64,000 bases of DNA from the NCBI GenBank assembly GCA_022842995.1, contig JALHOM010000001.1, positions 10,444 to 74,443 of the forward strand. Direction: 5' to 3'. The DNA is from Candidatus Saccharimonadota bacterium (GTDB lineage: Bacteria; Patescibacteriota; Saccharimonadia; Saccharimonadales; 2-12-FULL-41-12). The position numbers were made by a program, and so were the translations under genes. Positions 8,330 through 61,718 of this stretch are shown piece by piece (positions within the stretch are counted from its first letter, which is position 1; every line of letters starts with the position of its first letter). The notes below the pieces were generated by a model. That model was not told where the DNA came from. It did no database searches and saw nothing but the letters and a program-made list of their open reading frames with translations.

Positions 8330-8880
8330 GATCTTTCTTGTCCTTTACGACTACTTTAATCTATATTCAAGACATAATCGTTTGAGAAATATCATACATA
8401 TTAAAAAAACAAAAACGCCTCGTGTATTAGTGTACCCTTTTTCAAGACGTTTTTGCTTACAAATTGTGGATTGATATTTAGAGGCCGGGACGATAAAACC
8501 GCTCCATTAAATAAACTATTTAGCGCTTATCGTCGACCGAGCCTTGACTGACCGCTCATCATTGCTTTAAAGGCAACTTTGAGCGTTATTTTTAAATGTT
8601 TTTATGTTCAACATTCATGCTCGTATACTAGCGCATTATGCCGCTTATGTCAATCCTTATTATAGACTTATCAACAACGTTCATCTGTAAATTAAAGGCG
8701 ATTCTATGTTGTGATCAATACAATATTAATTTTTTGCTATTGATATAATCCTCATTTAGACATAGGTTAAACTATAAAAAAGTATATCCATCGTGAATAA
8801 CTTTTCAATAAAATCCTAGCCTCATAAGGCCCAAATTTTCCAGACCCGAACAACTGATCCTGATGCTCATTTTGTTAAAT

Positions 8881-8910
8881 CTGTGTCGCGATCGCGACAC
8901 AGATTTAATA
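8881..8910. repeat. 30-bp perfect palindrome AAATCTGTGTCGCGATCGCGACACAGATTT in a long non-coding region
   Basis: Read directly from the sequence. It equals its own reverse complement and is centred on CGATCG. Confidence 0.9.
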
Positions 8911-9783
8911 TTTTTTGCTGATTCGATCATAGACTTTAGCAACCGAATCAAATTCTCAGGACTACATGATAATTAATTTTAATCCTGTATTTGTTTATTA
9001 AGCATATACATTAATCAATATTTTATCTATGGCGTTCGGCTTTAAGCGCGATATAACCAAGTATTTTCATGTTATCAATATCATGATGGTCTTTGTATCG
9101 ACATTTATAAATAGAAGTCGACCAATAACATTTTCTAGCAGGAAAAATTATCCGACCAACATTTCGCATAAAAATTCCTAAGAATGATTCATGGCCATTC
9201 AAATCCCCTCACCCGCCAAGTCTTCCAGCTAGGGCATCTTCCAAGCCTATCCTTATTTTTTGAAACCACCTTTTTACTAAAACGAGTGATTTTGCCATGC
9301 AGCATCGAGCCTGAATTTCATGAACAGGAAACCATAAAGATACAGTCGATAAGCTTTATTGGGTTAATTAAACTACGCGATTACATATTAATTTCATGGA
9401 TTATGAATGAGGTTTAACATAAACATTTTGAGCACTCATAAGCATAAAGTTTATGATTCAAAATATTGCATTTTTTGGCATACATTTATTGAATAAATAA
9501 TCTGTGGAAAACTTATGCACATATTGTACTCATTTCTTTATTGACAGGTTAAATCTCTCACAGTAATATGGGGTTAGCACTTGAATAAAAAAAGTGCTCA
9601 AAAACAAAAACGTCTCTGTTAACAACGGCTTCTCGCAAGCCGTTGTTCCATAACACTGGGACGTTCGATAACAGAAAATTATAAATAAAAACCGCAGAAA
9701 ATAACCCCGCAGCATAAGCTACGGGGTTGTTTTTATATTAAGGTAATTGTTCTTTTGCAAACCTGGGGTATACTTTCAGACAC

Positions 9784-11304
9784 ATGAAAACCAGATCCAA
9801 AATTCAGACAATCATCGAAGCATCTAATGGCGGTGTGATAGTCGATATTGAATGTCATATTTCAAATTCCTTACCAAACATCGTAATTGTTGGTTTTGCC
9901 AATCGATCGGTCGACGAAGCCAAAGAACGCATCCGCGGAGCTTTAGCCTCCAGCAATATCCAATTACCGAAAAAACGAATTACCGTCAATTTAGCTCCTG
10001 CCGACCTACCTAAAGAAGGTTCCTATTTTGATCTTCCGATCACTCTTGGCATTTTAACTGAGAGCGGGATTATTTCTCCAGGACCAATCAAAGACACCGC
10101 TTGTTTTGGAGAAATTGGACTCGACGGGTCGATACGCCCTGTTCGCGGAATCATCGGAAAAATCCTAAATGCGCAGAAACTCGGCTTTAATAAATTCCTT
10201 ATTCCCGAAGACAACTGCGATCAGGCGCGGCTGATACCTGGCGTTACTATTATTACGGCCAATACAATAAAAGGACTGGTCTCGTGCCTTAATGATCAAT
10301 CTAGTATATATGCGATCGATACTGGCGAAGGCAAACTACCTATGACTCCCCCCGCCAACCAAAATAGCGCAAACTCGATTGACGACGTTATAGGCCAACA
10401 GCACGCCAAACGTGCTCTCGTGATTGCAGCGGCCGGACACCACAACATCATGCTCAGTGGCCCACCGGGTGCGGGAAAATCAATGCTAGCAAACACTATT
10501 ACAAGTATCATGCCTCCCCTGACCTTAACCGAGATTCTCGAAACAACCCATATTCACAGCCTGGCTAGCCGAAACTACGACCAGATCATCCATGAGCGAC
10601 CGGTTCGCTCGCCTCATCATAGTGCCAGCGCAATCGCCGTAATCGGCGGCGGACAAAACCCGAGACCGGGTGAAATTAGCCTAAGTCACAACGGTGTTTT
10701 AGTTTTTGACGAATTTCCGGAGTTCAATCGGCAAGTCATCGAAGCCCTTCGGCAACCGCTGGAAGATAAGGTTATCAGTGTTGCCAGGGCCAAAGATACC
10801 GCCAACTTCCCTGCCGATTTTCTTCTCATAGCTACCGCTAACCCCTGCCCCTGCGGCTTTTTTGGAACAAGCAAAGAGTGTTCTTGCCTCCCATATCAGA
10901 TCACAAATTACCAACGGAAAATCTCTGGACCAATAATCGACCGTATCGACCTTTACGTCGATGTCGACGAGGTAGAGCACGCCTCTATATTGAAGACGCA
11001 GGCCTCTGAGCAAGCTCCCCGACTGTCCACACAGATAAAGGACGCTCGCGACAGGCAATTATCTAAGCGAGGAAAATTAAACTCGAGATTAAGCGGAAAA
11101 GACTTCCGAGACAGCAATCTACTTGCAGCCGAGGCCAAGAAGTACCTTGACGACGCCAGCAACCCCCTCGGACTGTCCGCCAGAAGTTATATAAGAGTTC
11201 TACGCATTGCTCGGACGATAGCCGATCTTGAGTTGTCAGAGAAGATTGAAGAACATCACGTCGCTGAAGCCCTGCAGTATCGGAAACGACATCAGGCACT
11301 ATAG
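9784..11304 (+). CDS. comM: YifB/ComM family Mg-chelatase-like AAA+ ATPase (competence protein ComM)
   Basis: N-terminal Lon-protease-like domain, Walker A GPPGAGKS, and a C-terminal Mg-chelatase subunit ChlI-like region. The whole-length pattern is typical of ComM. Confidence 0.85.
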   Translation: MKTRSKIQTIIEASNGGVIVDIECHISNSLPNIVIVGFANRSVDEAKERIRGALASSNIQLPKKRITVNLAPADLPKEGSYFDLPITLGILTESGIISPGPIKDTACFGEIGLDGSIRPVRGIIGKILNAQKLGFNKFLIPEDNCDQARLIPGVTIITANTIKGLVSCLNDQSSIYAIDTGEGKLPMTPPANQNSANSIDDVIGQQHAKRALVIAAAGHHNIMLSGPPGAGKSMLANTITSIMPPLTLTEILETTHIHSLASRNYDQIIHERPVRSPHHSASAIAVIGGGQNPRPGEISLSHNGVLVFDEFPEFNRQVIEALRQPLEDKVISVARAKDTANFPADFLLIATANPCPCGFFGTSKECSCLPYQITNYQRKISGPIIDRIDLYVDVDEVEHASILKTQASEQAPRLSTQIKDARDRQLSKRGKLNSRLSGKDFRDSNLLAAEAKKYLDDASNPLGLSARSYIRVLRIARTIADLELSEKIEEHHVAEALQYRKRHQAL

Positions 11305-12495: not shown

Positions 12496-12530
12496 TAAAA
12501 AACCCTGGCATAATCCAGGGTTTTTTATTT
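12496..12530 (+). terminator. rho-independent terminator of the infC-rpmI-rplT operon
   Basis: Stem AAAAACCCTGG / CCAGGGTTTTT with loop CATAAT, followed by TTTTATTTT. Confidence 0.6.
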
Positions 12531-12627
12531 TGTCAGACTATCTATAAGCCGGGTTTTGTTCCCGCACCTTTTGATGACTTATTTTTAAACTTTGTAAAAA
12601 AGGATTAAATCAGCAAAAGGTGCGGGA

Positions 12628-13090
12628 GCCAATCATCTATCTAGTCCATCAATTACTCAATGGATCAAGCGGCTTTTACGGTCTGACTTCGGCGGGAAAC
12701 CTTTGAAGACAGACCTCCTTGCAACAGACAGGGTTTACCTACTGATCATGTCACCATGATCTGTTGTGGGCTCTTACCCCACTCTTTTCACCCTTACCCT
12801 CACACCCCTGCACCCAATCTCAGCCAGCAAGCAAAGCTTGCTGCGCCAGATTGTAGGGCTATTGCTACGTCAAAGCCTTGCGAGATTCAGTCGACGTATT
12901 CAAATACGTCTCCTTCGAATTTCTCAGACTTTTCCTAGCACTAGCCTCTTGCAGAGGCGTGAGGGCGGTATTGTTTCTGTGGCACTTTCCCTAGAGTTAC
13001 CTCTGGTTGCCGTTAGCAACTGTCATTCCCTACGTTGCCCGGACTTTCCTCCCGTGCCTTGTAAGGCACGGGCGATTGGCCGATAGTCTA
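12628..13090 (-). ncRNA. rnpB: RNase P RNA, bacterial type (rnpB)
   Basis: The minus strand contains the universally conserved P4 motif GAGGAAAGTCCGGGC, preceded by a P3 hairpin (CCCGTGCCTTACAAGGCACGGG). It also contains GGGTAAGGGTGAAAAGAGTGGGGTAAGAGCCCAC, matching E. coli AGGUAAGGGUGAAAGGGUGCGGUAAGAGCGCACC. The 5' GCCAATC and 3' GATTGGC can form P1. The overlapping + ORFs (12756-12938, 12766-13086) are spurious. Confidence 0.7.
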
Positions 13091-13128
13091 ACTCTCCTAG
13101 TATACCACCCGAAATTTACGATAGTTGT

Positions 13129-20476: not shown

Positions 20477-20865
20477 TGATAAGACCTCCTTAAAACTTTT
20501 TAAGAGGTCTTTTTTAATGCCTCACCCCTGTTATATACTGACCTCAAATTGACTTTTTTGCTGTTTTGTGTTAACATAAGCGTGTTAAACAAGGTTTTTG
20601 TGTGAGTAACACCTCAAGCAATGTCTTGGAGGAATTTGCGCTCTTTTACGAAGAGCTCGAGAAATCCGCCAAGCCAGCTTCACGGATCAAGCGTTAAACT
20701 AGAGACTGACGCTTCTCCACCAGGGTAAAACCACTATAATCAACCGTTGCTAACGCGCATTGGAGTCTAGTTCATGGACTCTTTTTTTATGCCAAATTAT
20801 CGGTATCCATAGCGCTTATACACAGAAACCCACAGGCTTATCCACTAGCTTTTTGAACAGCTGTA

Positions 20866-20881
20866 TGTCAATATATTGACA
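20866..20881. promoter_or_regulatory. 16-bp perfect palindrome TGTCAATATATTGACA overlapping the nrdR start codon (NrdR-box-like operator)
   Basis: The core CAATATATTG matches the published NrdR-box core CwAtATaTwG. The palindrome ends on the A of the ATG. Confidence 0.45.
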
Positions 20882-21285
20882 TGGTTTGCATACATTGCGG
20901 TTCAAAAACAAAGACCACTAATTCTCGCCGGGTTGCCCGGCACAACCAAACATGGCGTCGTCGCCAGTGCCTCGTTTGCCAGGCTATATTCACCACCCGG
21001 GAGGCGCTTGACTACGATTCGGCGATCCGCGTAAAATCTGCCGATAAAGCTCTTGAGAGCCTGTCTCGCGACCGTTTGTTCATAGATATATTCCGAAGCC
21101 TCTCGCACAGAAAAACGGCTCTCAGCGACGCCAGTGCCCTCACAGACACAATCTTGAGCGCCCTCATTGCCGATTCAACAAACGGAGTCATCACCACCCA
21201 AGAAATCGTCCACAAATCGACCGAAACGCTACAACGCTTCGATACGGTCTCTGCCACTGTTTATACAGCCCACCACGCGGATTAG
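20881..21285 (+). CDS. nrdR: transcriptional repressor NrdR (zinc ribbon plus divergent ATP-cone)
   Basis: MVCIHCGSK...RRRQCLVCQAIFTTRE compares with E. coli NrdR RRRRQCLVCNERFTTFE. Confidence 0.75.
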   Translation: MVCIHCGSKTKTTNSRRVARHNQTWRRRQCLVCQAIFTTREALDYDSAIRVKSADKALESLSRDRLFIDIFRSLSHRKTALSDASALTDTILSALIADSTNGVITTQEIVHKSTETLQRFDTVSATVYTAHHAD

Positions 21286-33053: not shown

Positions 33054-33128
33054 TGGTGCCCCCGCCACGAGTCGAACGTGAAGCTTCTCCTTAGGACGGA
33101 GCTATTTTATCCATTGAACTACGGGGGC
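33054..33128 (-). tRNA. tRNA-Arg (anticodon CCU) candidate
   Basis: Minus strand: acceptor GCCCCCG / CGGGGGC, anticodon arm GCTCC-GTCCTAA-GGAGA, T-arm TCACG-TTCGACT-CGTGG, then A-CCA. The D-arm is irregular. Confidence 0.5.
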
Positions 33129-33706: not shown

Positions 33707-33802
33707 TGATCTTCCTTTTTCTTTAATGCTCACATTTTTGGGTAAGCAAATTTATTACTGAATACAAATAGTATACCAAACCTCCTGCCGTAACCACGAA
33801 TC

Positions 33803-33840
33803 TACCACACTTTTTGAACGATCGTTCAAAAAGTGTGGTA
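33803..33840. repeat. 38-bp perfect palindrome TACCACACTTTTTGAACGATCGTTCAAAAAGTGTGGTA (copy A of a palindrome family; arms 11 + CGATCG + 11)
   Basis: Read directly; self-complementary. It lies 12 bp upstream of the ATG of the 157-aa gene and in the ndk upstream region. It contains divergent TTGAAC hexamers. Confidence 0.9.
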
Positions 33841-33851
33841 CTATTTTTCAT

Positions 33852-34325
33852 ATGGACAGGAAGTTGACAGGAACACAATATATTTTGCTTGCGCTTATTC
33901 CCTATACCAAAGCAAACTTGCAGTTTAGCTTTGCCAGAAAGTCATTCTTTAGAGAAGTAGCGATCAGGGATCATGTTCACGAAAAAGCAGCTCGCAGTGG
34001 GTTTTACCGAGCAATGAAACAAGGGCTCATAGAAGAAGACGAAAAGGGCCAAATAAGACTCACCAACAAAGGTAAGCGTCGAATAGCGACATACACTTCT
34101 CGCTACCTACCGAACAGCAACCTTATGGTAATATTCGATATCGCCGAAGCAGAGCGAGCAAAGCGTTCTCACGTCAGAGCACTCCTCAAAGAATTATCTT
34201 TCAAGCAAGTTCAAAAGAGCGTATGGGTCAGCGAGTACGATCATCGATCTTTAGTGCAAATGGAAGTCGAACACCTGAAGCTGCAGGACTCCATCCAAGT
34301 ATTCGAATGCTATCGCCTATCATAA
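33852..34325 (+). CDS. putative DNA-binding regulator (wHTH-like N-terminus) with a C-terminal Cas2-like motif
   Basis: The C-terminal ~65 aa (LMVIFDIAEAERAKRSHVRALLKELSFKQVQKSVWVSEY...VFECYRLS) follows the Cas2-like pattern hhhhYDI...R..h...L...G.R.Q.SVF..., which is also seen in PaaX-type regulators. The N-terminus is basic and helical. The gene is exactly bracketed by palindromes A and B. Confidence 0.5.
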   Translation: MDRKLTGTQYILLALIPYTKANLQFSFARKSFFREVAIRDHVHEKAARSGFYRAMKQGLIEEDEKGQIRLTNKGKRRIATYTSRYLPNSNLMVIFDIAEAERAKRSHVRALLKELSFKQVQKSVWVSEYDHRSLVQMEVEHLKLQDSIQVFECYRLS

Positions 34326-34329
34326 ATTT

Positions 34330-34367
34330 TTACTACACTTTTTGAACGATCGTTCAAAAAGTGTAGT
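34330..34367. repeat. 38-bp perfect palindrome TACTACACTTTTTGAACGATCGTTCAAAAAGTGTAGTA (copy B), 5 bp after the stop of the 157-aa gene and 118 bp upstream of the recombinase gene
   Basis: Read directly. Differs from copy A at one symmetric position. A TAGTAT -10-like hexamer sits at its right edge. Confidence 0.9.
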
Positions 34368-34484
34368 ATTGTTGGTTATTCGATTGTTTGTTGCTCGGGG
34401 GGTTGGAGTATAAAAGATTTTGGATAGAAGCTGTGGAGGTCTTGTAAATGAGGTGGTTTGGTTGGGGTGAGATAGAATAAGTAC

Positions 34485-35399
34485 ATGGATTACCAAAAGC
34501 TACTTGTCGACTTCTTGGAATACCTCGAGATCGAACAAAACCGATCACAAAAAACGATCGCCAATTATCATCATTACCTTATACGGCTTTCTGACTTTGC
34601 GGGCGAAATTAAAGTAGAAGACATCACTCCAGAACTGATCAGAAAATGGAGACTTTGGCTTAACCGACTTGGCACCAACACCAGCGACGAACTTGGGAAA
34701 AGTACCCAAAACTATCATTTGATAGCGCTGCGAAGTTTCTTAAAATACTGTGCCAAACGCGACATAAAGACCATGAGCCCCGAGAAAGTAGAACTCGCCC
34801 GTACCAAACGCAAGCAAGTAACTTTTCTAACGCCCGGAGAGCTTGAGCGACTTTTTGATCAGCCAGACACCTCGACTTCTGCAGGCCTGCGTGATCGGGC
34901 TATCTTGGAGCTTCTCTACTCAAGCGGGCTCCGTGTCTCGGAGTTATCCGGTCTGAACCGCGATCATATCAACCTTGAGCGACGAGAGTTCATGGTGCGC
35001 GGTAAAGGCCAGAAAGATCGCCCTGTTTTCATTAGCGATCAAGCCGCAGACTGGATTTTGAAATACACCGAATCTCGCGACGATAAAGCCCCTGCTCTTT
35101 TCATCCGATTTGGCGGCGTCAAAAACCCAGACCTCAGCGGTAACTACCTTCGACTCACACCACGCAGTATACAAAGGATGGTCTTGAAGTATGCGCTGCT
35201 CGCAGGAATCACAAAGAAAGTCTCTCCACACACCCTCAGACACTCCTACGCGACAGACCTCCTTATGAACGGAGCCGATTTACGCTCGGTTCAAGCCATG
35301 CTCGGGCACAGCAACATCCAAACTACACAAATCTACACACACGTAACTGACCCACACCTAAAAAAAGTCCACGAGCAATTCCATCGGCGAAAAGAATAA
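34485..35399 (+). CDS. xerD: tyrosine site-specific recombinase, XerC/XerD family
   Basis: Catalytic residues R ... K ... HTLRHSYATDLLMNGADLRSVQAMLGHSNIQTTQIYTH (H-x-x-R ... Y). The N-terminal SAM-like core-binding domain reads LSDFAG...NYHHYLIRL. Confidence 0.8.
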   Translation: MDYQKLLVDFLEYLEIEQNRSQKTIANYHHYLIRLSDFAGEIKVEDITPELIRKWRLWLNRLGTNTSDELGKSTQNYHLIALRSFLKYCAKRDIKTMSPEKVELARTKRKQVTFLTPGELERLFDQPDTSTSAGLRDRAILELLYSSGLRVSELSGLNRDHINLERREFMVRGKGQKDRPVFISDQAADWILKYTESRDDKAPALFIRFGGVKNPDLSGNYLRLTPRSIQRMVLKYALLAGITKKVSPHTLRHSYATDLLMNGADLRSVQAMLGHSNIQTTQIYTHVTDPHLKKVHEQFHRRKE

Positions 35400-52933: not shown

Positions 52934-54901
52934 ATGCTAACAATTGCGGGCCAATTTCATGTCCACCATCTCCCTACTTTTCGTGTCAGGCTATCTGTTA
53001 ATTGGCCACTCGTTGTTACTGTAGCGGCTGCCCTGATCGGCTCGACGCTCCTGCTCCTCGGCGTTAATTTTGTAACGCCAAAAACCCTGGCCTTCAACTA
53101 CGCCCAAAACAACAGTTGCATAGTAAATCCCACACTCTTCCCCGGCGCGACCAAAGTAGCGAGTGATAATTATCACGTAAATCGCATTGGCAATATTTCG
53201 TTCGGTAATTTTCCACTGTATTCTCACTCAACTTGTTTTCAGGCCAAAAAGCTCACTAACCAACAGGCTAGCTCAGCCAAAATTAATCTCTCCGCCCTGC
53301 CATGGCCATCTCAAAACATAACCATAAAATCTGCGCCTGCGCCGATGTTGAACTTGACCCAAGCAGCCGATAAACCAATTTCTCTGACCGACCAGCTCAA
53401 GATCAACCTCAGTTCTACCGACAAAACACATAACTATCTCCTGCAAGCTAACAATAAATCCGTCTCCTGCAACCTCGAACAGATGAGCTTGAGTTGTCCT
53501 CTCGAGGAGCTTGGGCTCAATCAAGCGACTTCTTACCCGATCGAGATCGTTCGCGAACTTGGCGGTTCGGAAAGTCAGCCGATTCTTAAATCAACCATCA
53601 CCACGGTTACTGCAGTCACCATAACGTCCAGTTCGATCAGCCCCGGCGCGCTCGTCCTAGACAAGCCAGACAAGCTAACGATCACCACCGACAAACCTCT
53701 AACGCAAGCTTCCAAAATCTCTCTTAGCTCTACTAAAGCCGGCGCTCAATCTGATATAAAGTTCAACTACACGATTGAGGGAGCAATGATCACGATCACT
53801 CCACTCACGGCTCTTCCGCGCGAAAGCGTAATCACGCTGAACATCGGTGAAATTACTGCGAGCGACAGTGGCTACTTAGAAAAACCATATAGCCTCAGCT
53901 TTACGACCAGTGGCGGACCAAAGGTTACCTCAACGGGTCTCGGGACATACGGCCAAAGCACTGCGTCGTCGGCCACCCTAAAATTTGACTCCAAACTGCT
54001 GGCAAATCAAAACTTCGGCCAGGTTGTCAGCCTTACTAAAGCCGGCTCGCCAGTAGCCACATCTGTCACGCCTGCCAGTCCCACAAGTCTCACGCTCAAG
54101 CCAAATGCTCCGCTAGAACGTTGCACAACGTATACAATCACCGTCAACGGCTCAATTGCTAACGAGTTCGGCGTCCCTGCCGAAAGCCCCTACTCTTTTA
54201 ACTTCAGGACGCTCTGCCAAGAAGTCTTCAGCATCGGAACGAGCAACGCCGGCAGATCAATCACCGCTTATAAATTTGGTAACGGCCCAACCAAAATTTT
54301 ATATATCGGCGCCACGCACGGCGACGAATTAAGCTCCAAATACATATTAGATTCCTGGATTAACGACCTCGAAGCCAATTACGCCAAGATTCCGAGTTCT
54401 AAAACCATCATCGTTATACCAGTCATCAACCCCGATGGTGCTCTGGCCGGCACGCGAGTCAATGGACGCAACGTCGACCTTAACCGAAACTTCCCGATAG
54501 CCAACTGGAAATCCGATGTCATCATGCCAGACAAAAAGCTTCTTGTCGGCGGCGGAGGCTCGGCGCCCCTATCGGAACCTGAGTCGAAAGCCCTTGCCGA
54601 CTACACCGCTTCACTCGCCCCGCGCCTAGTCCTCACCTACCATTCCAAAGGCGGTATGGTCGTCGCCAACGAAGCAGGCGACTCAGTCGCGATAGCTCAA
54701 AACTACGGCAAATCAACGCGCTTCTGGGCCACTGCCGAAAGCAAGCTCGGCACGGCATTTGCCTACGACACGACCGGTGCCTACGAAAACTGGCTAGCCG
54801 AAAAACTGTCGATCCCCGGCCTGCTCATCGAGCTAAAATCCCACACCACCAATGAATTCTCTGCCCACAAATCCGCCATGTGGGCTACCGTCAATCTGTA
54901 A
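52934..54901 (+). CDS. secreted protein with N-terminal beta-rich repeats and a C-terminal M14 zinc carboxypeptidase domain
   Basis: N-terminal TM/signal. C-terminal GATHGDELSS (HxxE Zn ligands), NPDG and NRNF motifs of M14 peptidases. Confidence 0.7.
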   Translation: MLTIAGQFHVHHLPTFRVRLSVNWPLVVTVAAALIGSTLLLLGVNFVTPKTLAFNYAQNNSCIVNPTLFPGATKVASDNYHVNRIGNISFGNFPLYSHSTCFQAKKLTNQQASSAKINLSALPWPSQNITIKSAPAPMLNLTQAADKPISLTDQLKINLSSTDKTHNYLLQANNKSVSCNLEQMSLSCPLEELGLNQATSYPIEIVRELGGSESQPILKSTITTVTAVTITSSSISPGALVLDKPDKLTITTDKPLTQASKISLSSTKAGAQSDIKFNYTIEGAMITITPLTALPRESVITLNIGEITASDSGYLEKPYSLSFTTSGGPKVTSTGLGTYGQSTASSATLKFDSKLLANQNFGQVVSLTKAGSPVATSVTPASPTSLTLKPNAPLERCTTYTITVNGSIANEFGVPAESPYSFNFRTLCQEVFSIGTSNAGRSITAYKFGNGPTKILYIGATHGDELSSKYILDSWINDLEANYAKIPSSKTIIVIPVINPDGALAGTRVNGRNVDLNRNFPIANWKSDVIMPDKKLLVGGGGSAPLSEPESKALADYTASLAPRLVLTYHSKGGMVVANEAGDSVAIAQNYGKSTRFWATAESKLGTAFAYDTTGAYENWLAEKLSIPGLLIELKSHTTNEFSAHKSAMWATVNL

Positions 54902-54912
54902 ATACGCTATAA
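54887..54912 (+). repeat. 26-bp direct repeat ACCGTCAATCTGTAAATACGCTATAA (copy 1, overlapping the last codons of the M14 gene)
   Basis: Identical to 56872-56897. Confidence 0.9.
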
Positions 54913-54952: not shown

Positions 54953-56776
54953 TTAATTTGGGACGACACTCAATACTAGGATGCTTCTTAAATTCTTAGC
55001 CAGATAATAATCGGTGCGACCTTTTATCTTTTGCTGATAATCGGCGTCGTCCGTACTACACTCTCTAATCATTGCGTGTAGACTTTTAACTATCTCACTA
55101 GGGTCTTCAGCGTGGATACCGTGTCTTGAGACAAGGTAACTTAGTTCACGCGCATCAGCTGGATTATCATAAGGGTTAAACTCGGGCAAAATATCAGCTC
55201 TGACTTCTCGAACTCTAGCTCTAAATCGCCCGCTTTCATTCGCATGCACCTTGATTCGATCGTTGCCAACTGCGTCTAACGCTAAAGCCTGGAGCCTGTC
55301 ATCGCGAAAAATCATATTTTCAGCAAGCTTCCAGGCGGGCGTCGGACGTTGCTGATTTTTGTCATAACCTACGATCGTATCTTTCAATATTGCATTATTA
55401 AAGCCACCAGAAATGGCATCAAGAACATACAGTGTTTCAATTTCTTCATGCCCTAATTTTCCCCTCATTCGAAACGCGGCCGCCATAATTGCGCGAGGTA
55501 ATTCAAAATCATCTGGTAAATCCGATAGCCCTGCCGCAATCTTTAAATATTCGGTCGTTACGTACTCTATAAAATTCTCTCGACTACTCTTACTTGGCTG
55601 ACTATCGGCTTTTCGAAAATCAATAACTTCAGCCACGTATTGAGTTAAACTTACAAATGCCTTGCTTTTTACCTCACTCTTAGCAAACAAATCCAACATT
55701 AATCCCGCAGAGCGTACCTCTGTCCGATCCAAATGTCGCATAGCCGATAGGGCATCCCCCTCTAAAGCCCAGGTAGCATCGATAATCGTGACTTCCGCTG
55801 CACCTTCAGAACCGATAGTAATGAAAGTATTCCAGGCATGCCCATCGCGCGATGGTCCCCGCTGTATACTGCTCGGGTTAGGACGTGCATCTAAATATCC
55901 TTGGCCACCCAGTCCAGCATCAAAAACAGCGTATGTATTTGCAAGCATACTTAAATCAGTCTGCGTTGCCTTAAGAGCCTCAAATACTGCTTTCACATTC
56001 GCGGCGACGTTTCTGCAAATACCATTTCCTTTCCAGGTCTTATTTCCTCTGTTAGCCATTCCTTCTCTCAATAATTCAATCGCTGTTGACCTGTCGGCTG
56101 TCGTTAATTCTTTTACCCCCACATCTTCGCTACTATACTTTGAGACACTCTGGACAAATGCCGCACTGAGCTTAACTGCCTGCTCAGGTGTCAGATGGCT
56201 CAACGAACGGATCTTTAAAGTCTCTAATAGCCGTTGGCCATCGGGATTGTATTCAGTAAATTCATTAACTACGCTTCTTAGTTCTCTCTGCCAACCGTCT
56301 CGTCGAATAGTATTTTGATATGTGTGCCCGCCATTGAAAGGATCTTCGAATAGAACATCTAGATAGGCGGGTACTGGGTGAGCCTCAGAACCTGGTGCCA
56401 CTTTTGGGGCATAGTGTTCGAGTGTCGTAAACCCAATTTTAGCTTTTGGAGTCATCTCGACGAAGACTCTGGTTCGTGAATTAATTTTCTCTAGCGACCT
56501 CATGTTCTCTAGACAAACCCCGACAGCACCGTCTTTATCATAGCCCTCACCAATCTTTGATCTCTCGTGAGTCCCATCGCTCATTTTGCGAGTAGTTACA
56601 GTGATACCTCTAGGCCCGGCAAAAAAGTAGACATCGTCCACCCCATAAAAATGACCAGCCGAAATCATTAAATCATGTAATGCAATCTGTCCAAGCCCTT
56701 TGCCGGTCAGGGGTGGTATTGGAGCTTGAGGAGCGCCTTCGCTACGGATATCTTCAGGGGGTAGTGTGTCTGCCAT
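54953..56776 (-). CDS. transglutaminase-like superfamily (papain-like Cys-His-Asp) domain protein
   Basis: KGNGICRNVAANV (G-x-C motif) and DGHAWNTF (HAW-type His). Confidence 0.5.
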   Translation of the reverse strand: MADTLPPEDIRSEGAPQAPIPPLTGKGLGQIALHDLMISAGHFYGVDDVYFFAGPRGITVTTRKMSDGTHERSKIGEGYDKDGAVGVCLENMRSLEKINSRTRVFVEMTPKAKIGFTTLEHYAPKVAPGSEAHPVPAYLDVLFEDPFNGGHTYQNTIRRDGWQRELRSVVNEFTEYNPDGQRLLETLKIRSLSHLTPEQAVKLSAAFVQSVSKYSSEDVGVKELTTADRSTAIELLREGMANRGNKTWKGNGICRNVAANVKAVFEALKATQTDLSMLANTYAVFDAGLGGQGYLDARPNPSSIQRGPSRDGHAWNTFITIGSEGAAEVTIIDATWALEGDALSAMRHLDRTEVRSAGLMLDLFAKSEVKSKAFVSLTQYVAEVIDFRKADSQPSKSSRENFIEYVTTEYLKIAAGLSDLPDDFELPRAIMAAAFRMRGKLGHEEIETLYVLDAISGGFNNAILKDTIVGYDKNQQRPTPAWKLAENMIFRDDRLQALALDAVGNDRIKVHANESGRFRARVREVRADILPEFNPYDNPADARELSYLVSRHGIHAEDPSEIVKSLHAMIRECSTDDADYQQKIKGRTDYYLAKNLRSILVLSVVPN

Positions 56777-56871
56777 TATTTTTGATTTTTGTTTTTACTA
56801 TTCTATATAAACATTAGCACTTTATCGACCGAATGTCAATGTGATGGATTACTGAATTAATACTAAAACAT

Positions 56872-56897
56872 ACCGTCAATCTGTAAATACGCTATAA
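56872..56897 (+). repeat. 26-bp direct repeat copy 2; it contains the ychF -10 element (TATAAT at 56893-56898)
   Basis: Identical to 54887-54912. It lies 11 nt upstream of the ychF ATG. Confidence 0.9.
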
Positions 56898-61501: not shown

Positions 61502-61547
61502 CTCAAAATTTGTACTACACTTTTTGAACGATCGTCACAATTTTGAG
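61502..61547. repeat. palindrome family copy C: half-site TACTACACTTTTTGAACGATCG nested in an imperfect 46-bp palindrome (CTCAAAATT...AATTTTGAG)
   Basis: Read directly. The left arm is identical to copy B; the right arm is replaced. Confidence 0.8.
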
Positions 61548-61578: not shown

Positions 61579-61614
61579 TGTTCCACTTTTTTAACGATCG
61601 TTCAAAAAGTGGAA
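61579..61614. repeat. palindrome family copy D: GTTCCACTTTTTTAACGATCGTTCAAAAAGTGGAAC (36 bp, one mismatch)
   Basis: Read directly. Same core and CGATCG centre as copies A and B. Confidence 0.85.
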
Positions 61615-61718
61615 CTGGTTGTGGTTAGGGTTTTTCTGGCTTATTTTGGCGATAAGCGTGTAGCGAATCTTTGATCGAATATGGACCGGGATAAGATAAC
61701 GCGGTTACCCTGCCGAGA

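Follow-up and report, generated by a model that had tools for sequence, protein, structure and literature searches.

A common Patescibacteria gene for a small PaaX-like protein lies between two ~38-bp palindromes that are most likely operators bound by its product for autoregulation

The phenylacetyl-CoA-responsive repressor PaaX, known from E. coli and Pseudomonas (PDB 8a39, 3L09), carries a winged helix at its N-terminus, with a Cas2-like dimerisation domain behind it, and Cas2 dimers themselves bind duplex DNA along their surface in the Cas1-Cas2 complex. Paired DNA sites are familiar from other systems: in the lac (O1/O2), gal (OE/OI) and deo systems the promoter is overlapped by a main operator, an identical copy of which follows a few hundred bp downstream, and the pdif modules of Acinetobacter plasmids are genes bounded by paired Xer sites. 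To our knowledge, almost nothing has been worked out about how Saccharibacteria and other Patescibacteria (CPR) regulate their genes, and their tiny genomes hold few recognisable regulators. Literature searches on PaaX together with Cas2-like, Patescibacteria, CPR or Saccharibacteria returned nothing relevant, and no publication on the arrangement described below was found. The operator of E. coli PaaX, TGATTC-N27-GAATCA, is a very long dyad, its 6-bp inverted repeats lying 27 bp apart and spanning 39 bp in total, and PaaX autorepresses Px via steric hindrance (PMC9493321).

Here we describe a 157-aa regulator of similar domain order that is encoded between two palindromes, dyads A and B, in a Candidatus Saccharimonadota bacterium. 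The window, that is the whole stretch of DNA analysed, comprises 64,000 nucleotides, and its features are listed in Table 1. An initial annotation of the window had placed two perfect palindromes around the ORF, differing from each other at one symmetric position, with the stop codon 5 nt ahead of the second copy and with TACTAT / TAGTAT hexamers at the edges. All of this was confirmed on the window sequence, with the hexamers placed at the right edge of either dyad; B is a perfect palindrome as claimed, but it had been placed at 34330-34367, one position too early. The single difference between the copies is C/T in the left arm and G/A in the right arm. The gap between A and the start codon is 11 nt, the distance from the centre of A to the ATG is 30 bp, and 116 nt separate B from the start of a xer-type ORF at 34485. 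The 28-mer common to the copies was found three times in the window, compared with 0 expected by chance (100 shuffles). When the window was compared with two relative loci (L001 and L002), the dyads appeared as islands of conservation in otherwise diverged intergenic regions: dyad A is intact in L001 and carries a single symmetric double change in L002, the adjoining intergenic bases are diverged, and the only conserved blocks in the downstream intergenic region are the 28-bp core of B and a xerD-proximal TAGAATAA.

Table 1. Coordinates of the regulator gene, its flanking dyads and further palindromic copies in the window
Feature	Position	Strand	Description
Dyad A	33803..33840	.	Perfect 38-bp palindrome TACCACACTTTTTGAACGATCGTTCAAAAAGTGTGGTA, CGATCG centre
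Extended -10-like element	33836..33844	+	TGGTACTAT, TGGTA from right arm of A, ends 7 nt before ATG
Regulator ORF	33852..34325	+	157 aa, winged helix and Cas2-like domain
Dyad B	34331..34368	.	Perfect 38-bp palindrome TACTACACTTTTTGAACGATCGTTCAAAAAGTGTAGTA, 5 nt past regulator stop
Half copy	61513..61534	.	Left arm and centre TACTACACTTTTTGAACGATCG, then non-complementary sequence
Third dyad	61580..61615	.	GTTCCACTTTTTTAACGATCGTTCAAAAAGTGGAAC, one asymmetric mismatch
Possible distant member	8873..8910	.	38-bp near-perfect palindrome, centre CGCGATCGCG, unrelated arms

The regulator has an N-terminal winged helix (approximately residues 7-78) and a C-terminal Cas2-like ferredoxin domain (residues 90-153). 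It matches PaaX_M (PF20803) above the gathering score (9.1e-14) and CRISPR_Cas2 (PF09827) at 1.4e-6, and with 25.9 bits it passes the cutoff of 24.5 of the NCBIfam cas2 model (TIGR01573). A Foldseek search with its AlphaFold2 model (pLDDT 83.6) returned E. coli PaaX (8a39) and Rv0674 on top (3kfw among the top matches), followed by Cas2 proteins. The resemblance to PaaX and Cas2 that had been noticed in the initial annotation is borne out by these Pfam, NCBIfam cas2 and Foldseek results, and, as judged from profile matches and the predicted fold, the ORF is a two-domain PaaX-like protein in which a winged helix is fused to a Cas2-like, putative dimerisation domain. The likeness to PaaX has its limits. 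The protein is 157 aa long versus 316 aa in PaaX, it stops directly past the Cas2-like domain and thus contains no C-terminal helical effector (phenylacetyl-CoA) domain and no evident ligand sensor, and its hhalign match to E. coli PaaX (probability 26%, E = 7e-4) covers only the winged helix and the middle domain. It scores 16.4 bits against the PaaX equivalog TIGR02277, whose cutoff is 264.55, and no paa genes are found beside the regulator, the neighbours being ndk and xerD in the window and recA, cysS and others in the relatives.

The Cas2 sequence signature (xVIFDI...R..R...VQKSVW) is kept in the regulator and lost in E. coli PaaX. Residues F95, D96, R105, R109, F117, Q121 and V124 are invariant in the alignment of homologues, and D96, which closes strand beta-1, corresponds in the alignment to D10 of the Cas2-like SSO8090 (3exc). 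The protein therefore shares with Cas2 the ferredoxin fold, the signature at the NCBIfam cutoff and the beta-1 Asp; unlike in Cas2, the domain is fused to a winged helix, and neither cas1 nor a CRISPR array is present in the 64-kb window. For the regulator ORF, PADLOC gave Cas2 models only, and no Cas domain was detected among the called neighbour genes of 11 relative loci with Pfam calls. A phage or defence origin was rejected on the absence of any PHROG match, on the same PADLOC output and on IMG/VR, where neither the core 20-mer nor relatives turned up. The family comprises 3710 representative clusters at E<=1e-10, and the mean pairwise identity among homologues is 50% in the Cas2-like domain and 37% in the winged helix.

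The bracket arrangement was compared over 16 homologous loci, which cover protein identities of 20-100% and at least six different gene neighbourhoods. A dyad or half-dyad centred on CGATCG/CGRYCG is found on both sides of the gene in all of them (16/16), at a background density of the centre hexamer of ~0.7 per kb. Relatives having the gene without flanking palindromes would have spoken against an operator cassette; there are none among the 16 loci, and this idea of the initial annotation survives. The dyads span 36-44 bp and reach at least 26 bp at 24 of the 32 flanking sites; half copies stand at the upstream sites of L019 and L004. Even where the protein is just 20-26% identical to the window regulator, the dyads share the same 20-bp core. 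Across the relatives the CG..CG of the dyad centre is invariant and the arms are variable. In favour of binding by the regulator, the invariant centre parallels the better-conserved Cas2-like domain, and the variable arms parallel the more variable winged helix.

The geometry of the two sites differs. The upstream dyad is centred 29-33 bp before the ATG in eight loci and 14-17 bp before it in three more, and in two of these three (L005 and L006) the called ATG lies inside a TATTAT -10-like hexamer. The downstream dyad starts 2-12 bp past the stop codon in most loci, about as near to the gene as coding constraints permit, and is present in 16/16, regardless of the orientation of the next gene. 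Centre-to-centre distances range from 517 to 771 bp, with no obvious pattern of helical phasing.

We estimate at roughly 0.5 the probability that the protein is an autoregulated PaaX-like dimer with two flanking operators, a reading which rests on sequence comparison and which was also the best supported of the three offered in the initial annotation. According to this model, the regulator would dimerise and bind the CGATCG-centred dyads of ~38 bp that flank the gene encoding it. Dyad A, the proposed main operator, spans the putative -35/spacer region and supplies part of an extended -10-like element, which is conserved in L001 and L002; the position of TGGTACTAT would imply a leaderless or near-leaderless regulator mRNA, with the transcript starting at or beside the ATG. 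Other genes of the window carry (TGG)TATACT-type hexamers 5-9 nt ahead of their ATG, and leaderless-type -10s are common in this genome. Because A covers the -35/spacer and part of the extended -10, protein bound to A would be expected to occlude RNA polymerase, so that the regulator would repress itself in the way PaaX does at Px. The single difference between A and B removes the TG of the extended -10 in B. Dyad B would most likely serve as a second operator, forming a loop or clamp over the ~530-bp gene, and/or terminate transcription through a hairpin or roadblock, and further dyad copies in the genome would act as extra binding sites. The initial annotation had also considered the palindromes as operators for xerD; B lies ~100 bp upstream of the xerD -10 and is thus not a classical xerD operator.

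The proposed autorepression by promoter occlusion has its closest counterpart in PaaX, whose 39-bp operator span is comparable to the 36-44-bp dyads found here. Unlike in PaaX, dyads stand on both sides of the gene, are perfect palindromes and have an invariant CGATCG centre. A promoter-side operator with a second site downstream would also resemble the looping repressors of the lac, gal and deo systems, from which the present arrangement differs in the place of the second site, which invariably follows closely on the stop codon of the gene encoding the repressor.

One would argue that the palindromes are instead 11-6-11 sites of the adjacent XerA/XerD-like recombinase, either dif or the ends of a pdif/IMEX-like cassette that can be excised or inverted. 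An 11-6-11 parse is indeed possible, the gene lies between paired sites as in pdif modules, and an xer-type gene is adjacent in this clade, the ORF in the window passing the NCBIfam XerA cutoff (234.8 vs 220). Moreover, the downstream dyad of L005 stands directly ahead of the xerD start, a second dyad pair in L003 brackets the comEC operon, and L023 has a lone palindrome beside xerD and no regulator gene (ndk-uppP-[single palindrome]-xerD), a layout that an earlier deletion between the two copies could account for. However, the dyad pair is present in 16/16 loci and a xer gene adjoins the regulator in only 4, the other 12 having no recombinase beside the bracketed gene (other neighbours include recA/pilB and cysS), which speaks against the proposed tie between the palindromes and the adjacent xer. 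The expectation of a unique dif-type site fails as well: the motif has three matches in the window, where 3.5 copies are counted in 64 kb with the half copy, and at least four dyad sites are found in the organism of L002. The dif/Xer reading is not supported because the site is multi-copy and because GC skew is negative over all 64 kb, with no switch and no terminus in the window. Xer/dif sites have conserved arms and a variable central spacer, and the dyads, with their invariant centre and variable arms, show the opposite; their arms are presumably also unlike the dif consensus. Structural variants were not seen among the window, L001 and L002, and the suggestion of an invertible or excisable segment received no direct support. 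On synteny, copy number, GC skew and conservation pattern a dif/Xer site was rejected, and we hold the recombination reading as a whole to be very improbable. Judging from the loci compared, the recombinase neighbour is a feature of this lineage only and stands outside the regulator-dyad device.

The conservation pattern bears in the same manner on the proposal that the core is a LexA-type (Cheo) SOS box and that the regulator is merely SOS-controlled. The core of A and B is an exact GAAC-N4-GTTC match, the dyad 20-mer occurs also in Paenibacillus and, in L018, beside a second GAAC-N4-GTTC motif, which we take to be a Cheo-type LexA box, and the regulator of L003 is divergent from recA. Yet Cheo boxes keep their GAAC/GTTC arms and vary in the spacer, which is the reverse of what is seen in these dyads: the relatives have the arms replaced (by GAC, TAAC, CAGCA and others) around an invariant central CGATCG. 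The likeness to a Cheo/SOS-box core pointed out in the initial annotation is hence real as far as the motif is concerned, but it is confined to this clade and not conserved in relatives. In addition, the palindromy extends far beyond 12 bp, and no GAAC-N4-GTTC occurs in the window other than in A and B. On the conservation pattern and the lack of other boxes in the window a Cheo/LexA box was rejected, and an SOS-controlled regulator is barely credible.

Another explanation is that the functional form is an RNA hairpin, which would structure the 5' end of the regulator mRNA, terminate or stabilise its 3' end and elsewhere act as bidirectional terminators, with the Cas2-like/winged-helix protein recognising the conserved apical C(GAUC)G loop. 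A terminator scan flagged both A and B, each with a 17-pair stem followed by a T-rich tail; many dispersed copies lie shortly past stop codons, and some, e.g. in L012 and L022, are flanked by A-runs and T-runs. Of five imperfect downstream dyads, four fold better on the sense strand (G.U-type mismatches number 7 on the sense and 3 on the antisense strand, too few to call a bias), and Cas2 and VapD, whose folds are in the Foldseek list, are RNases. On the other hand, the upstream dyad of five loci is probably not transcribed, since divergent genes flank it and the -10 adjoins it without a gap. Overall there is no enrichment of G.U pairs (~10 vs 34 non-pairs), the non-palindromic centres CGACCG and CGGTCG are found in both orientations with respect to the gene, and ordinary terminators of the window have unrelated sequences. 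Nor does a known RNA family account for the dyads: no Rfam match was obtained at the gathering threshold, and there was only weak miRNA-like hairpin noise at E>0.1. We consider an RNA hairpin improbable as the functional form.

Dyads are also found away from the regulator gene, in the window, L003, L041, L043 and 11 Patescibacteria-labelled loci. In the window these include the third dyad and the half copy, both of which had been missed in the initial annotation. The third dyad lies between convergent ABC-2 permease and beta-lactamase-like genes and is without promoter geometry; its 36-mer recurs at the orthologous position in L041, at L043 and at B of L001 and L002. Membership of the 8873 palindrome in the dyad family is uncertain. 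Upstream of a comM-like gene, it stands in 1.4 kb of AT-rich DNA with few ORFs; its arms are similar to the dyads flanking a 204-aa homologue in L047, and a second regulator paralogue that could explain it was sought in the window (HMM, tblastn) and not found. Two more candidates were rejected, namely window 20850-20908 (TTTTTGAAC...GTTCAAAAA), a chance match with its right arm inside the nrdR coding sequence, and a seemingly longer palindrome (27-nt arm) at L041, which is an artefact of assembly fold-back where the contig ends. Extra sites amount to ~1 per 50 kb over the 258 kb of surveyed loci, and within ±10 kb no dyad beyond the flanking pair was seen in 9 of the 11 relative loci L001-L007 and L044-L047.

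These copies supply evidence against the operator model. Some dyads lie between convergent genes (at 61.5 kb in the window and in its L041 orthologue, in L009, L012 and L038, and at 6817 in L003), and in L028 one is placed in-frame in prmC, in a variable loop of PrmC, making it 7 aa longer than another PrmC; no promoter is expected at such places. Identical 36-40-bp copies occur at separate loci even where the palindrome is imperfect, as with the same imperfect palindrome present at 2894 and 6817 of L003 in opposite orientations, which suggests copying rather than selection for binding. Where sites of one genome differ, they nearly always do so by symmetric double changes, and the symmetry is strictly Watson-Crick (204 double-sided changes vs 57 in shuffles). 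Additionally, palindromy reaches 50-64 bp, and a dimer footprint alone would predict neither this nor the paired changes. The arms differ markedly within one genome (8873 vs 33819 in the window), and the 20-bp core shared by dyads beside proteins of just 20-26% identity to the window regulator likewise counts against the model.

Such features would be accommodated if the CGATCG palindromes were a small family of hairpin-forming repeats copied round the genome, similar to REP elements. The flanked gene would then encode the cognate protein that maintains or processes them, which might be a nuclease or nickase at the hairpin tip, with autoregulation as a by-product. A gene that is single-copy, inherited vertically and has a palindromic element on each side, together with elements scattered intergenically, mostly at 3' gene ends, and kept symmetric by paired changes, may mirror the REPIN-RAYT layout. 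The copies between convergent genes, the prmC insertion, the half copies broken directly past the centre, and the retention of the Cas2 signature including D96, unlike in E. coli PaaX, point in the same direction. However, the apparent copy number is far lower than the tens to hundreds of REP elements, and the dyads have no GTAG head. The regulator is no Y1/HUH transposase such as RAYT (TnpA-REP), having no match to PF01797, and we know of no cut-and-rejoin chemistry in Cas2 folds. The fixed register of the upstream copy with the start codon (29-33 bp) and the embedded -10 favour a genuine promoter/operator role. Furthermore, the third window site is kept at the orthologous position in the organism of L002, whose regulator is 81% identical, so it is static rather than mobile, and the viral contigs of IMG/VR contain neither the dyad core 20-mer nor relatives of the regulator. 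We regard a REP-like repeat family as unlikely. Somewhat more doubtful is the specific proposal, made from sequence comparison, that the winged-helix-Cas2 protein, with its catalytic-type Asp intact, and the palindromes form an unrecognised REPIN/RAYT-like partnership in Patescibacteria, in which hairpins or cruciforms would be recognised and nicked or processed at the invariant centre, their symmetry kept and occasional copies made to new sites; by new sites we mean 3' gene ends, positions bracketing operons and in-frame positions within genes.

With regard to annotation, members of this family should be labelled neither "PaaX, phenylacetate regulator" nor "Cas2", and the palindromes should not be labelled dif sites. 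Here the Cas2-signature domain has no CRISPR context; it is joined to a DNA-binding domain and linked with palindromic DNA, and this setting bears on the origins of Cas2 and PaaX. If the REPIN/RAYT-like partnership were true, a Cas2 homologue would have a CRISPR-independent role associated with a DNA element and might be related to the ancestor of Cas2. What we find most likely is that a common Patescibacteria gene, lying between two ~38-bp palindromes, encodes a protein that binds them to control its own expression. The analysis defines a large protein family (~3,700 clusters) with a fixed and readily recognised cis-architecture, a promoter dyad and a post-stop dyad, and since this architecture is fixed, a candidate binding site can be predicted for every member. 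The system is thus directly testable, now that Saccharibacteria have become tractable.

The palindromic sites (dyads) go with the regulator gene and not with xer. Both palindromes around the 157-aa ORF have the sequence described in the initial annotation: each is perfectly symmetric, and A and B differ at one symmetric position. The coordinates of A stood, while B lies one base to the right of the position claimed for it, and besides the two copies, which are both present, a third copy and a half copy had been overlooked (see the table). The 28-mer common to A and B gave three matches against none in 100 shuffles, a recurrence that is not expected by chance.

Coordinates of the features in the window and in related loci (L003, L028)
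Feature	Locus	Position	Strand	Sequence	Remarks
Dyad A	window	33803-33840		TACCACACTTTTTGAACGATCGTTCAAAAAGTGTGGTA	perfect palindrome
Dyad B	window	34331-34368		TACTACACTTTTTGAACGATCGTTCAAAAAGTGTAGTA	perfect palindrome
157-aa regulator ORF	window	33852-34325			starts 11 nt past A, ends 5 nt short of B
Extended -10	window	33836-33844		TGGTACTAT	TGGTA from right arm of A; ends 7 nt before ATG
Xer-type ORF	window	start 34485			
Third copy, 36 bp	window	61580-61615			one mismatch; between convergent ABC-2 permease and beta-lactamase-like genes
Half copy	window	61513-61534			between the same convergent genes
Distant CGATCG-centred palindrome, 38 bp	window	8873-8910		TTAAATCTGTGTCGCGATCGCGACACAGATTTAA	near-perfect; unrelated arms
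Perfect 27-bp direct repeat	window	54886-54912 and 56871-56897		TACCGTCAATCTGTAAATACGCTATAA	brackets 607-aa ORF
607-aa ORF	window	54953-56776	-		no Pfam domain
tRNA-Arg(CCT)	window	33054-33128	-		ARAGORN; encoded CCA end visible
RNase P RNA (bacterial type A)	window	12529-13091	-		
Imperfect dyads, 38-40 bp	L003	2876-2913 and 6799-6836			identical, opposite orientation; around comEC-LTD-hypothetical operon
Fifth dyad, 42 bp	L003	785-826			perfect; between tsaD and rny
Palindrome, 38 bp	L028	985-1024			perfect; in-frame within prmC (release-factor methyltransferase), encodes NSHFLNDRSKSENI

We gathered 15 further homologue loci, L001-L007 and L044-L047 by exact protein look-up and L019, L029, L035 and L039 from a DNA scan, where they were identified by an HMM made from the homologues; protein identity to the window regulator ranges from 81% down to 20%. 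A CGATCG hexamer is present on either side of the regulator gene in 16 of 16 loci (as CGACCG or CGGTCG in L006, L007 and L045, and as TGATCG at one site), and chance is excluded, because these loci have such hexamers at a background density of only about 0.7 per kb. Dyads of at least 26 bp occupy 24 of the 32 flanking sites, the others being half or degenerate dyads. The regulator gene lies between ndk and xerD in the window, L001, L002 and L005, between recA and pilB in L003, between genes for an ABC exporter and ribosomal protein L25 in L004 (convergent), between those for an AI-2E transporter and cysS in L006 and L007 (convergent), between trehalase and cysS genes in L044, and between other genes in the remaining loci. 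When the window, L001 and L002 are aligned, the dyads are conserved islands, and the sole other conserved blocks are the ndk leader/promoter block upstream and the xerD-proximal TAGAATAA downstream.

The tyrosine-recombinase/dif reading tied to the adjacent xer gene, the source of the exotic look of the find, is not supported. The recombinase adjoins the regulator gene in only 4 of the 16 loci, GC skew is negative over the whole window without a switch, and an alignment of 35 dyads is invariant at the central C-G...C-G alone, with the A/T nearly so and the arms variable, a pattern opposite to that of Xer sites. The Cheo-like core GAAC-N4-GTTC is limited to the window clade and some distant lineages, and occurs nowhere in the window beyond A and B. 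One Saccharimonadales contig (L023, 1738-1787) has the order ndk-uppP-palindrome-xerD, with one perfect palindrome of ~50 bp and no regulator gene between; this empty bracket is compatible with a deletion between two dyads or with a move of the gene elsewhere.

The resemblance of the regulator to PaaX and Cas2, noticed earlier from the sequence, was borne out by Pfam profiles (PaaX_M, "PaaX central Cas2-like domain", 9.1e-14; CRISPR_Cas2, 1.4e-6) and by Foldseek against the PDB, which placed E. coli PaaX (8a39) and M. tuberculosis Rv0674 at the top, followed by many Cas2 proteins. The NCBIfam cas2 model narrowly passed its 24.5-bit cutoff with 25.9 bits, the PaaX equivalog model reached 16 bits where 265 are required, and Cas2 models were the sole PADLOC matches. 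The AlphaFold2 model (34 homologues as input, pLDDT 83.6) has a winged helix at ~7-78 and a beta-alpha-beta-beta-alpha-beta domain at 90-153, and the protein ends where the effector-binding C-terminal domain of PaaX would start. Residues F95, D96, R105, R109, F117, Q121 and V124, invariant in the homologues, are the Cas2 signature, which E. coli PaaX lacks; D96 aligns to the D at position 10 of the Cas2-like SSO8090 (3exc). The family is large: its representative clusters number 5,596 at E<=1e-3 and 3,710 at E<=1e-10, with most proteins 150-200 aa long, and wherever a source names its proteins the name is "PaaX". No CRISPR array was found in the window, and in the 11 relative loci with Pfam calls on neighbour genes none of the neighbours was a Cas1.

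Of the three readings offered at first, the autoregulated repressor with putative operators flanking its own gene is the best, supported by the bracket in all 16 loci and by the PaaX-like dyad span. The E. coli PaaX site, TGATTC-N27-GAATCA, spans 39 bp, and autorepression by PaaX works through steric hindrance at its promoter (PMC9493321); we propose PaaX-like autorepression because this span fits the 36-44-bp dyads described here. A regulator dimer joined through the Cas2-like domains would be placed over the invariant dyad centre, its two winged helices would contact the arms, and on dyad A it would turn off the regulator's own, presumably leaderless promoter. Mean pairwise identity is 50% in the Cas2-like domain versus 37% in the winged helix, and the parallel of the better-conserved domain with the invariant centre, and of the variable one with the variable arms, is suggestive only. 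Dyad B would be the closest possible non-coding spot for a second operator, with a loop or clamp across the ~530-bp gene; alternatively or additionally it could act as a hairpin or roadblock terminator. A simple terminator scan found both A and B terminator-like. In 11 of the 16 loci the centre of the downstream dyad comes 17-31 bp after the stop codon, regardless of which way the next gene points.

Upstream, the distance from dyad centre to ATG is 29-33 bp in 8 loci (24-100% identity) and 14-17 bp in L005, L006 and L039. In L005 and L006 the called ATG falls within a TATTAT -10-like hexamer, and therefore translation probably begins a few codons further downstream. This organism seems to use leaderless promoters as a matter of course, because the layout of the extended -10 at dyad A, with a (TGG)TATACT-type hexamer lying 5-9 nt upstream of the ATG and no Shine-Dalgarno (SD) sequence, is seen at 8 of the window's 46 long ORFs, xerD among them (TAGAAT, 34473-34478); 13 others have an SD. 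Through the A/B difference (G to A), B loses the TG of the extended -10, and in L001 and L002 the B-type dyad is devoid of any -10, so that A looks promoter-competent and B does not. A TGGTATACT-type extended -10 recurs 5-9 nt before SD-less ATGs of many genes (window 33765-33778 and, for instance, the ORFs at 9742, 14438 and 31977), which suggests frequent leaderless mRNAs. Its ndk copy (33765-33778) overlaps an opposite-strand TAGTAT, giving a symmetric, possibly bidirectional -10.

The dyads make up a small family of scattered members. The 36-mer GTTCCACTTTTTGAACGATCGTTCAAAAAGTGGAAC occurs unchanged on three contigs from the organism of L002 and at the L001 B site, and with one mismatch it is the 61.5-kb site of the window; one of the three contigs holds the orthologue of that site, and another has the 36-mer downstream of prfB. 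Five dyads fall within 10.6 kb at locus L003, on a 1.05-Mb contig and beside recA, recX and type IV pilus genes. Scanning one genome per species with the 20-bp core yielded 33 loci. In the 13 that bear a Saccharibacteria or other Patescibacteria label, the core lies within palindromes of 26-64 bp, most perfect or nearly so, whose outer arms vary between genomes. The regulator gene is present in only two of these 13 (L029, L039); it is also present in L019 and L035, contigs labelled Gammaproteobacteria that may be mis-binned. Dyads stand between convergent genes in L009, L012 and L038 and between tandem genes in L022 and L026, in the latter just before prmC with promoter-like spacing. The variable PrmC loop that holds the peptide encoded by the family member in L028 is 7 aa longer than in L026, which is reminiscent of Rickettsia palindromic elements.

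The dyad symmetry is strictly Watson-Crick and is kept while the sequence changes, because in the 35-dyad alignment 94.3% of arm positions are paired versus 57% in shuffles, double-sided changes number 204 versus 57 in shuffles, the covariation score is 0.89 versus 0.13-0.19 for slid controls, and G.U combinations are rare (about 10 versus 34 non-pairs). One could argue that the functional form is an RNA hairpin. However, G.U pairs are not enriched, dyad A lies between divergent genes in five loci, and non-palindromic centres face either way with respect to the gene, which makes an RNA form quite improbable. Differences between sites within a genome are also symmetric (window A versus B; A-type versus GTTCCAC-type), which is not predicted from a protein footprint alone.

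Dispersed copies with strictly maintained symmetry resemble REP/REPIN elements with a flanked RAYT gene, and a REP-like system, with the regulator gene akin to RAYT, is the main rival reading. Nevertheless we consider it unlikely: the regulator is not a Y1 transposase, the apparent copy number is low (about one extra site per 50 kb), and the 61.5-kb site is kept at an orthologous position. The autorepressor model leaves the REP-like behaviour of the palindromes unexplained. Copy numbers from MAGs are probably underestimates, since the dyads may break short-read assemblies. The L041 dyad is no more than a few tens of bases from the end of its contig, which folds back on itself there, and in L011, L019 and L035 it lies 20-93 bp from the start of the fetched stretch. 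Next to several dyads the composition is strongly skewed, G/T-rich on one strand, or there are short tandem repeats (window 34369-34470 and 61616-61700; GGTGGTAG in L023, 1690-1735; AACCCAC in L046, ~9860-9910; CTCTATCACAT in L047, 2290-2400).

The distant CGATCG-centred palindrome lies upstream of a comM-like (Mg-chelatase family) gene, within an ORF-poor, AT-rich stretch of 1.4 kb (8330-9783, about 40% GC) that has no convincing ORF and no Rfam match; its arms are similar to the dyads around the 204-aa homologue in L047. The 27-bp direct repeat with its 607-aa ORF looks like an insertion that duplicated its target; one repeat copy shares bases with the stop codon of a gene for an M14 carboxypeptidase-like protein and the other carries the ychF TATAAT promoter. 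The tRNA-Arg(CCT) is missing from the Rfam gathering-threshold list of the window. The RNase P RNA carries about 200 nt of insertions, because its match is 563 nt against a 367-position model, and inside it lies a 27-nt, 85%-complementary inverted repeat (12555-12632).

Our literature search found no publication tying Patescibacteria, or palindromes of this sort, to PaaX-like or Cas2-like proteins. Systems of this general kind, in which a PaaX-type repressor acts at a long dyad operator and represses itself, are already known. The features that seem to be new are the truncated two-domain protein with its retained Cas2 signature, the universal "dyad-gene-dyad" bracket with its invariant CGATCG centre, and the dispersed copies of strict symmetry.
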